This document shows positions 13,949-61,335 of a stretch of DNA of 64,000 nucleotides, piece after piece (positions within the stretch are counted from its first letter, which is position 1; each line of letters begins with the position of its first letter). Below the pieces are notes generated by a model that did no database searches, had not been told where the DNA came from, and saw nothing but the letters and a program-made list of their open reading frames with translations. This DNA comes from Octopus vulgaris (Eukaryota), in NCBI GenBank assembly GCA_951406725.2, contig OX597818.1, positions 76,384,001 through 76,448,000 on the forward strand, in the 5' to 3' direction. The translations under genes were made by a program, and so were the position numbers.

Positions 13949-14357
13949 ATTTAGGAATGGTCATTTTGCCAGTTTAGCCAATAAAAACACACGCACTATA
14001 TATTTGGTGTTACTTTGCTTCAGTGTTATTTATTTTTTACATTAATCTTAATCTTATTTCGGCCAGAGTTCTTTCGTCACACTTCTGTGACCTCATCAGT
14101 GGTCCTTTGCTTTCTTCTTTCTTATTGGTGTGTCTCTCCTTACTAACGGTCAGCCATTTTGTATTTTGTATTCCTATTGTATGTATCTTCACTTGCGCAT
14201 GCGTATACCTCTATGTGTGTCTATGTTTAGTTAGTGTGTGCGTGTGTGTGTGGGGAGGGAGTGCCTGTAATATTTGTTGGCTAAACTGGCAAAATGACCA
14301 TTCCTAAATACAACAATATCTGTTTCAACACACGATTTCACATCAAAAATCTTGCAA

Positions 14358-21479: not shown

Positions 21480-21881
21480 GTATATGTATATATATGTATA
21501 TGTATATATATGTATATATATGATGACGTCTCGTTCTGCTGGACTAGCCACCTAACAGGATACAATCATGGGTCAGATCTAATCTCGATTCGTCAAAAAA
21601 ATGATGACGTATTTCTTCCGTGGCAAAACTGTCGCTGCGCTTGGTTGGTTTCCTTTAGGAGTCTTTTCACTATATTCGTTGAGACTGGGTTTTGATTGGT
21701 TTGGAACTATATGACGTCAGTGAAAAGTGCAAGTGACCACAGCCTAGCTGAGCTGATATAAACCCAACAATCACAAAATTCACCAAAATTATGCGAACAG
21801 ACACCGATCAAAAATCATTACTGTTGCTCCCATTGGAACACAAGATAAAATCTAAAATGAACTCCTTGCCTTTTCAAGAAC

Positions 21882-22115
21882 ATGAATTTTTTATATTTGA
21901 CTCTATTGAATGTATGTCACAATTATGAACTACTACATCATACTCTTTAAACATATAGCATGGACTCCCTTTATTATATATGAATTTTTTATATTTGACT
22001 CTATTGAATATTATATATGAATTTTTTATATTTGACTCTATTGAATATATGTCACAATTATGAACTATTACATCATACTCTTTAAACATATAGCATGAAC
22101 TCCCTTTATTATATA
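21882..22115. repeat. AT-rich tandem duplication, about 98-bp unit (2 full copies, 1 partial)
   Basis: ATGAATTTTTTATATTTGACTCTATTGAAT recurs at about 21882, 21980 and 22017. Confidence 0.9.
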
Positions 22116-22244
22116 TAATTTTTTTTGATAAGGTTCGTTATTTCAAGAACCGAAACATGTTAAAAATTAAAATTTGTCTAATATAGCAGCATTTTCAAAC
22201 TTCATTTTTTACAAATATATATCCACTCGTATACGAGCTAATCT

Positions 22245-22304
<60 letters not shown>

Positions 22305-22309
<5 letters not shown>

Positions 22310-22950
22310 TAAATGAGGGCAAAGGAAAAAATTTCTAATGCCAAATATGCCGAAAAATTGGACATATTGTCCATTAACCATATAATTTTTTCACAATACT
22401 CACGCTACTTGAAAAAAGGTCGACAGACATTTCTAAAAAATTCCATTATTACCATATCGGACCAATTTCAGAGTTAGCTACTAAGAGCCCCCTCTTCGTC
22501 AGCGATACATGTGGCAAAAGAAATAAATGAGATACTTACTCATACCCATGGAAGAAGCAAACACTAAGTCATGAGCACAACTAAGTACCCCAAATACATC
22601 CAAAATAGAAATACTCCAGCCCATTCGAGACACGTGCGATTTGAACTGAGGCTCTCACAGAGTGAGATAGTCCGGAAGTGAACGCTTAAATTTATATCTA
22701 ATGAGGATAAAATTTCTTTTGAAAAAAATATTCTTACGAAAAAAATGTTATCAATGGCCAGCATATTAAAAAATACCTTAAACGGTTAAATTTATAAACA
22801 ATTCATAAATGAGGGCAAAGGAAAAAATTTCAAATGCCAAATATGCCGAAAAATTGGACATATTGTCCATTAACCATATAATTTTTTCATAATACGCACG
22901 CTACTCGAAAAAAGGTCGATGGTTATAATGGAATTTTTTAGAAATGTCTG
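22305..22950 (-). mobile_element. Non-coding HHR-containing retrozyme/PLE-like element, 496-bp monomer in partial tandem
   Basis: Direct repeat 22305-22423 = 22801-22919; HHR between the copies; abuts (TA)n; terminal 31-bp inversion. Confidence 0.8.
22453..22509 (-). ncRNA. Type I minimal hammerhead ribozyme
   Basis: UGUAUCG CUGACGA AGAG..CUCU GAAA UUGG UC CGAUAUG; 7-bp stem I; GUC cleavage after 22460. Confidence 0.8.
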
Positions 22951-23049
22951 TGACACAAAGTATGACAAGCGTGACACAAAGTATGACAAGGCTGGCCCTT
23001 TTAAATACAGGTACAACAAAAATAGGAAGAAAGAGTGAGAGGAATGTGT

Positions 23050-23212
23050 GGTCATAGAGTACATCTGGGTTCGCCACTACCCGCTGCCAGAGCCTCGTGA
23101 AGCTTTAGGTATTTTCGCTCAATAAACACTCACAACGCTCGGTCTGGGAATCAAAACCGCGATCTTATGACCTCGAGCTACTACCCTAACCACTGGGCCA
23201 TTGCGCCTCCGC
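23050..23212 (-). mobile_element. tRNA-derived SINE, third family
   Basis: Head GGAGGCGCAATGGCCCAGTGGTTAGGG..GATTCCCAGACC. Confidence 0.8.
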
Positions 23213-60985: not shown

Positions 60986-61335
60986 TGTTTTGAGGTCTTG
61001 AAGATGGAGGTCCCGAGTATTTCCATCAGACACTATTGTGCAAATCTTTTTCACTAAATTAAAGGGAATATTTCTTTTGATGTGTTTTGGATGGCATGAG
61101 CTAAACAGAAGATATTGCTTCAAATCCATTGGTTGATGATAAATGTCTGTTAAAATTTGGTTGAGGACTTTTTTTATCATAACTAAGAAAGGGAGCTATT
61201 CATTGCTATATTCCATTGTAAACTGAACGCTAGGGTTTATACTGTTTAAGATTGATTTAAATTCCAAAAGTTTATCAATGGTCTCATTCCAAATGATAAA
61301 GCAGTTATCCAGATATCTTTCCCAGTTCTATATAT
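60986..61335 (-). mobile_element. Penelope-like RT fragment
   Basis: KRYLDNCFIIW..INPSVQFTME..LPFL..TDIYHQPMDLKQYLLFSSCHPKHIKRNIPFNL. Confidence 0.9.

Follow-up and report, generated by a model that had tools for sequence, protein, structure and literature searches.

A dispersed non-coding hammerhead element in the octopus genome: insertion at (TA)n tracts and frequent read-through of the predicted ribozyme cut

The window is a stretch of 64,000 nucleotides of the Octopus vulgaris genome (contig OX597818.1), which comprises 2.8 Gb and is rich in microsatellites; all coordinates refer to this window. At positions 22305-22950 lies a non-coding element of ~500 bp with a predicted type I hammerhead; many hundreds of such copies occur in the genome. 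This copy reads on the minus strand within 2 kb of DNA with a GC content of 0.35, and its monomer has no coding capacity, stops being frequent in the six-frame translation. The features of the locus are as follows.

22248..22306, no strand: (TA)n target tract, common to the end of a Neptune-type Penelope-like element (PLE), tail-to-tail
22305..22800, minus strand: full monomer of 496 bp with no long ORF; the family has two fixed 3' ends, and 22305 corresponds to one of them
22452..22514, minus strand: type I hammerhead (core and stems) with a predicted cut at 22460/22459
22697..22800, minus strand: counterpart of the 'tail' (~105 nt) that separates the fixed 3' ends, with the second end at ~22697
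22801..22919, minus strand: upstream unit truncated at its 5' end, a pseudo-LTR-like partial tandem that matches the full unit at 115/119 bases
22920..22950, plus strand: inverted piece, covering +5/+6 to ~+37 past the predicted cut
22951..23210, minus strand: flanking SINE without the next ~110 nt present in other copies, a likely target-site deletion

The preliminary description of this locus had reported a 119-bp direct repeat (22305-22423 and 22801-22919), a 31-bp reverse-complement piece with one mismatch, (TA)n at the other end and a stop of the upstream copy ~5 nt from the predicted cut. This layout was borne out in every part: the repeat has the identity given above, positions 22920-22950 match 22424-22454 in reverse complement at 30/31 bases, and the inverted piece starts +5/+6 from the cut. 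A hairpin lies at 22706-22752 inside the equivalent of the tail. The flanking SINE is presumably of the tRNA type, and a 20-nt duplication is found at its junction (22950-22969 and 22971-22990); the loss of ~110 nt from the SINE together with this joint duplication suggests a distant second break. The junction of the copy reads CGA-TGG, compared with CGATATGG at the predicted cut, so that a start at +1 with the loss of 2 nt is as possible as a start at +5/+6. Furthermore, the inverted piece ends exactly at the start of the forward arm (y-z = 0), a geometry that would fit the twin priming described for L1 in the cited passages of PMC2837659.

A genome-wide search for the family gave 3116 candidate matches, and among the 40 scored the full monomers were 92-97% identical. 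The two fixed 3' ends, ~105 nt apart, both lie against (TA)n, at 119 and 201 exact junctions; among 30 loci picked by similarity alone, 27 were (TA)n-ended, as expected of the microsatellite or AT-rich target of a PLE-mobilized element. The arms of the insertions were analyzed in 183 loci (339 segments, with five short low-identity segments left out). Exactly one arm per 3' class was found in 100 of the 183 loci, a share that is biased upwards because many of these loci were anchored on the two 3' ends, and the arms are arranged head-to-head in the maps. Their median lengths are 192 and 236 nt, and 5' truncation is random, with ends spread along the monomer. Only 5/98 and 4/86 arms are longer than one monomer, and thus few copies test circularity; these long arms always run on into a further monomer and never into an ORF, reaching ~3.6 units in one locus (L208). 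Partial tandem and inverted insertions with a one-sided tail are present, as in PLE-mobilized elements, and short inversions are frequent (24 distinct cases from 30 rows, six being duplicates); two of the 24 end at +1..+5, namely the window copy and L091, the inversion of which starts at +1, and several others cross the predicted cut. Tandem units each bearing a hammerhead, as in retrozymes, occur in the family, but not in the window copy alone: the second hammerhead is passed by 23 arms, and 18 pattern matches have two post-cut segments one unit apart. The lack of coding capacity and the low GC content are likewise those of non-LTR retrozymes, and the RT and GIY-YIG ORF of an autonomous PLE is absent from the element. 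An older sister family (L241-L258; 70-84% similar to the monomer) has the same architecture, a shorter tail and another stem III length, and it is also non-coding. Clusters of 5' ends stronger than that at the cut site lie at monomer positions ~132-136 and 254-258 (L020 numbering).

On the minus strand the hammerhead core starts at 22502 and reads CUGACGA...GAAA-UUGG-UC. Stem I has an internal loop, stem II is lengthened by an inner hairpin and stem III is minimal; the core and stems are those of the type I motif of non-LTR retrozymes, although the Rfam models miss it, both at the gathering score and at E<=10. In an alignment of 13 hand-picked copies from two sister families the stems covary, with 91.8% of the cells paired (99% in stem II) and five pairs showing two-sided change; slid controls gave 25-39%. 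For stem III the preliminary description had considered ACCGGU likely, but the family carries AUCGGU, with TCGG between GAAA and UC in 148/161 copies. The window copy has TTGG at this place (AUUGGU), a decayed stem III with a computed self-duplex energy of 0.0 kcal/mol, compared with -4.5 kcal/mol for the family form. In addition, the first pair of stem I is an A.C mismatch in 151/161 copies, an anatomy that would be that of a weak ribozyme. In three loci (L315, L348 and L365) internal deletions between short microhomologies have removed most of the hammerhead. A further hammerhead-like core, CUGAUGA...GAAA with a 6-bp stem II, is located at 14099 of the window on the minus strand.

A plot of the 5' termini against the GUC site had been proposed beforehand as a check, and its outcome was mostly negative. 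The proposal that the 5' ends map to the element's own cut did not hold, since the arms mostly pass the cut and end all along the monomer; what stood was a borderline, 2-3-fold excess at the cut. The predicted cut junction is intact at 668 genomic sites (exact 30-mer across the cut). The first hammerhead is passed by 180/182 arms, with two stops compared with 3.0 expected, and the second by 23/26, with three stops compared with 0.87 expected (P 0.059; 13/236 windows are equally extreme). Without the window copy the pooled stops number six compared with 4.4 expected (P 0.28), and in 104 pattern-anchored loci three ends fall at +1..+5 compared with 2.6 expected, other 5-nt windows showing stronger clusters. 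An early cluster at the cut site (4 compared with 0.58 expected) came from 30 loci chosen for length and included the window copy; it shrank with more loci and was discarded. Read-through of the predicted cut is the rule in this family.

Two further samples, which overlap with the arm set and with each other, were directed at the cut itself. The post-cut sample took in 100 sites, the first among 478 that have the exact post-cut 30-mer (45 intact by cross-reference, 43 + 12 examined directly): 94 pass, four end at -1..+3 (L009, L312, L324 and L345) and two are ambiguous (L323 and L327), the four ends comparing with 1.3-2.0 expected (P 0.045-0.14). A targeted pattern that selects a broken upstream context gave 28 matches, which were sorted by hand into nine junctions at -1..+3 (among them L351, identical to the ambiguous L327), 12 true ends at -2..-13 (or 11, should two of them stem from one event), three internal deletions, three small indels and one ambiguous case. 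The rate ratio of -1..+3 to the 12 upstream positions is 2.25-2.45 (P 0.04-0.06); it falls to 1.8 (P 0.12) if the internal deletions are counted as ends, P then spanning 0.07-0.13, and for -1/+1 alone it is 2.4-3.0 (P 0.03-0.07). Overall, the local excess at the cut is 2-3-fold with P 0.03-0.12 on hand-classified junctions, and the cut-ending share would be ~2-3% of ~750 copies, background included and 35% detection assumed. A short fold-back (GTAA) directly follows the cut-side CG in five loci (L323, L324, L358, L363 and L370), and in L370 both arms start at -1/+1. Such a fold-back is compatible with an end at +1 or at -1 and hence is no proof of cleavage.

These counts bear differently on the ways in which an end at the cut could arise. 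That ribozyme-made 5' ends at the predicted cut are the general rule is very unlikely, and is largely refuted by the read-through counts: the near-complete passage of both hammerheads, the pooled stops, the stronger clusters in other 5-nt windows and the 668 intact junctions all stand against it, and the samples that favour it overlap. The nine targeted junctions, the four post-cut ends, the three stops at the second hammerhead, both arms of L370 and the inversion of L091 nevertheless lean towards some cleavage. A minor class of cleaved templates is plausible, with slightly less than an even chance, and its absence is given an even one. Were there no such class, the excess would derive from microhomology or from pausing of the RT at the hammerhead, and the end of the window copy would be due to chance. 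Candidate microhomologies exist (between ATAT and the TA target, in a GG/CC fold-back and in the near-palindrome around the cut), L005 adjoins a TA tract, first-passage stops are fewer than expected, the P value rises once internal deletions are counted, the fold-back junctions are as compatible with an end at -1 as with one at +1, and in the cited passages of PMC11167929 RNA-seq reads ending at the PAc cut were not found. However, the site had been predicted beforehand, an excess is favoured by three of the four partly overlapping samples, L370 has both arms at the cut, and fold-backs elsewhere are not enriched (43/339 compared with 36 in controls). As for the window copy, the preliminary description had read its 5' end as ribozyme-made and as a genomic fossil of hammerhead activity. 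With read-through common, 5' ends spread and the excess borderline, a single copy ending at +5 cannot be called a cleavage fossil; cleavage may have made this end, but we consider it less likely than not, and the copy alone offers no more than a possible trace of self-cutting and adds little by itself.

The nature of the template was addressed through rare variants. The arms of one insertion share such variants (99 per 29,539 sites, compared with 0.0001 per site between loci), as do the tandem units of one arm (31 per 10,309 sites); the differences between tandem units are symmetric (176 compared with 182), with no directed difference in more than four of 67 pairs. Private variants common to the repeated units of one insertion fit one template, probably a circle. 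Shared variants would also arise from a tandem source locus that was recently homogenized; L208 holds ~3.6 units. The circular fold of the monomer has z = -6.1 for L020 and z = -3.1 for the window copy (30 shuffles). Two earlier proposals fared well here: priming at the TA tract is supported by the fixed 3' point, and copying across the hammerhead for more than one monomer by the long arms, a circular template being plausible.

It could also be asked whether the units represent solo pseudo-LTR remnants that an autonomous PLE has left, derived from a linear partial-tandem locus, and not a self-standing retrozyme. Their architecture equals that of PLE ends and the arms are mostly short, but each arm longer than a monomer enters another monomer and not an ORF, and the older sister family is likewise non-coding; this origin is already disfavoured and appears unlikely. 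Among 46 GIY-YIG loci (150 of 6136 candidates scored) no autonomous PLE with the same terminal sequence was found. The search yielded a young family encoding a 781-aa RT + GIY-YIG protein (L289-L301, mostly 98-99.5% identical), which its zinc-finger-like linker would place in the Neptune type as described in the cited part of PMC8557442. An overlapping 479-aa frame without a clear Pfam family precedes the 781-aa frame (L297:581-2017). This PLE terminates on (TA)n and carries a variant hammerhead of its own, and in L297 the upstream repeat begins 8 nt before its own cut. It was rejected as a terminal-sharing partner since the TA target is common but the terminal sequence is not, and the only strong match between it and the monomer came from a relative nested downstream of a single copy (L270/L290, the same place); it is thus a candidate helper only. 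A motif taken up as another lead to a partner led to the older non-coding sister family and not to an autonomous PLE. In the window a decayed Neptune-type PLE 3' end (21516-22247, plus strand; 77-91% to L297) carries a minimal hammerhead (U3-A8 variant, 22125-22162) and has a short tail on the (TA)n tract of the element, tail-to-tail; an old fragment at 61026-61327 (minus strand) is 65% similar in DNA to the RT region of the Neptune type.

A mechanism can be proposed from these observations. A borrowed Penelope-like reverse transcriptase/endonuclease likely copies the element into (TA)n tracts, by target-primed reverse transcription that would proceed from both DNA ends on one RNA with two internal start sites. 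The template is probably a circular or uncut multimeric RNA, so that in most copies the predicted cut is read through. In the window copy the first cDNA would have run 1.24 monomers from the TA tract; a second priming, which likely involved both the point where this cDNA stalled and a remote DNA break within the SINE, would then have left the 31-bp inversion, this second step being twin priming with target deletion. A few percent of the templates probably had a ribozyme-made 5' end, and the window copy may, with rather less confidence, belong to them. We consider it quite probable that the locus is one PLE-copied insertion of a non-coding ~500-nt hammerhead element from a circular or uncut template that is mostly read through. 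More tentatively, and somewhat short of an even chance, the junctions of the family may record a retrozyme cycle in vivo: two-ended priming on mostly circular RNA, with a few percent of cleaved linear templates having an exact +1 5' end, often with a CG-GTAA fold-back, fixed in the genome.

The question addressed is whether hammerheads cleave in vivo in PLEs and animal retrozymes, and whether the template is a circle. If true, the retrozyme-cycle reading would be genomic evidence of in vivo cutting by a PLE-type minimal hammerhead, which the anole PLE work did not detect in the cited passages of PMC11167929. So far the junctions show read-through for the most part, and perhaps a small cleaved fraction. 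Hundreds of readable junctions in one family open the question to a census, and the value of the family is as census material. Among the published titles and abstract openings surveyed, none concerns the family or a genome-based count of where PLE 5' ends lie relative to the cut, which does not by itself settle absence from print.

Several known systems share parts of this picture. EN+ PLEs leave partial tandems, an inverted 5'-truncated copy, a tail at one end and microsatellite or AT-rich targets (PMC8557442, in part), and for the anole PLE two internal RT start sites flank the tail, cutting and extension affect both DNA strands, the main in vitro substrate is uncut RNA, and the ribozyme is dispensable in vitro, RNA ends at the cut not having been found (PMC11167929, in part). 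The octopus insertions are alike in all of these traits of structure and target, including a hammerhead that would be unneeded for insertion; they differ in the absence of an RT/GIY-YIG ORF and in a tail of ~105 nt, compared with 30-40 nt in the cited passages. The minimal hammerheads of PLE pseudo-LTRs (PMC4209133, in part) have a similar quasi-palindromic minimal stem III that would need a dimer, and motif pairs 100-700 bp apart on opposite strands, whereas the octopus stem III palindrome depends on G.U pairs (the -4.5 kcal/mol form), an A.C mismatch lies beside the cut and stem II has an inner hairpin. In L1 twin or dual priming (PMC2837659, in part) the 3'-most base of the inverted piece similarly adjoins the start of the forward piece, but the window locus has no poly(A), no target-site duplication was seen there and the flank is apparently deleted. 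Another likeness is to metazoan non-LTR retrozymes, as characterized in the cited parts of PMC7229834 and 10.64898/2026.07.22.740005: non-coding, low-GC repeats with a type I hammerhead per unit, a self-paired monomer and dispersed monomers, for which PLEs were proposed as mobilisers, as a proposal only, in PMC7229834. The octopus unit is longer (~500 nt compared with a typical 170-400) and occurs mostly as dispersed truncated two-armed insertions and not in arrays; the window copy, having a single hammerhead, falls outside the two-HHR 'active' class of Li et al. (10.64898/2026.07.22.740005, in part). The comparison is one of sequence-level features, with predicted cleavage and putative circles; on these features the element would work like an animal non-LTR retrozyme mobilized by a PLE.
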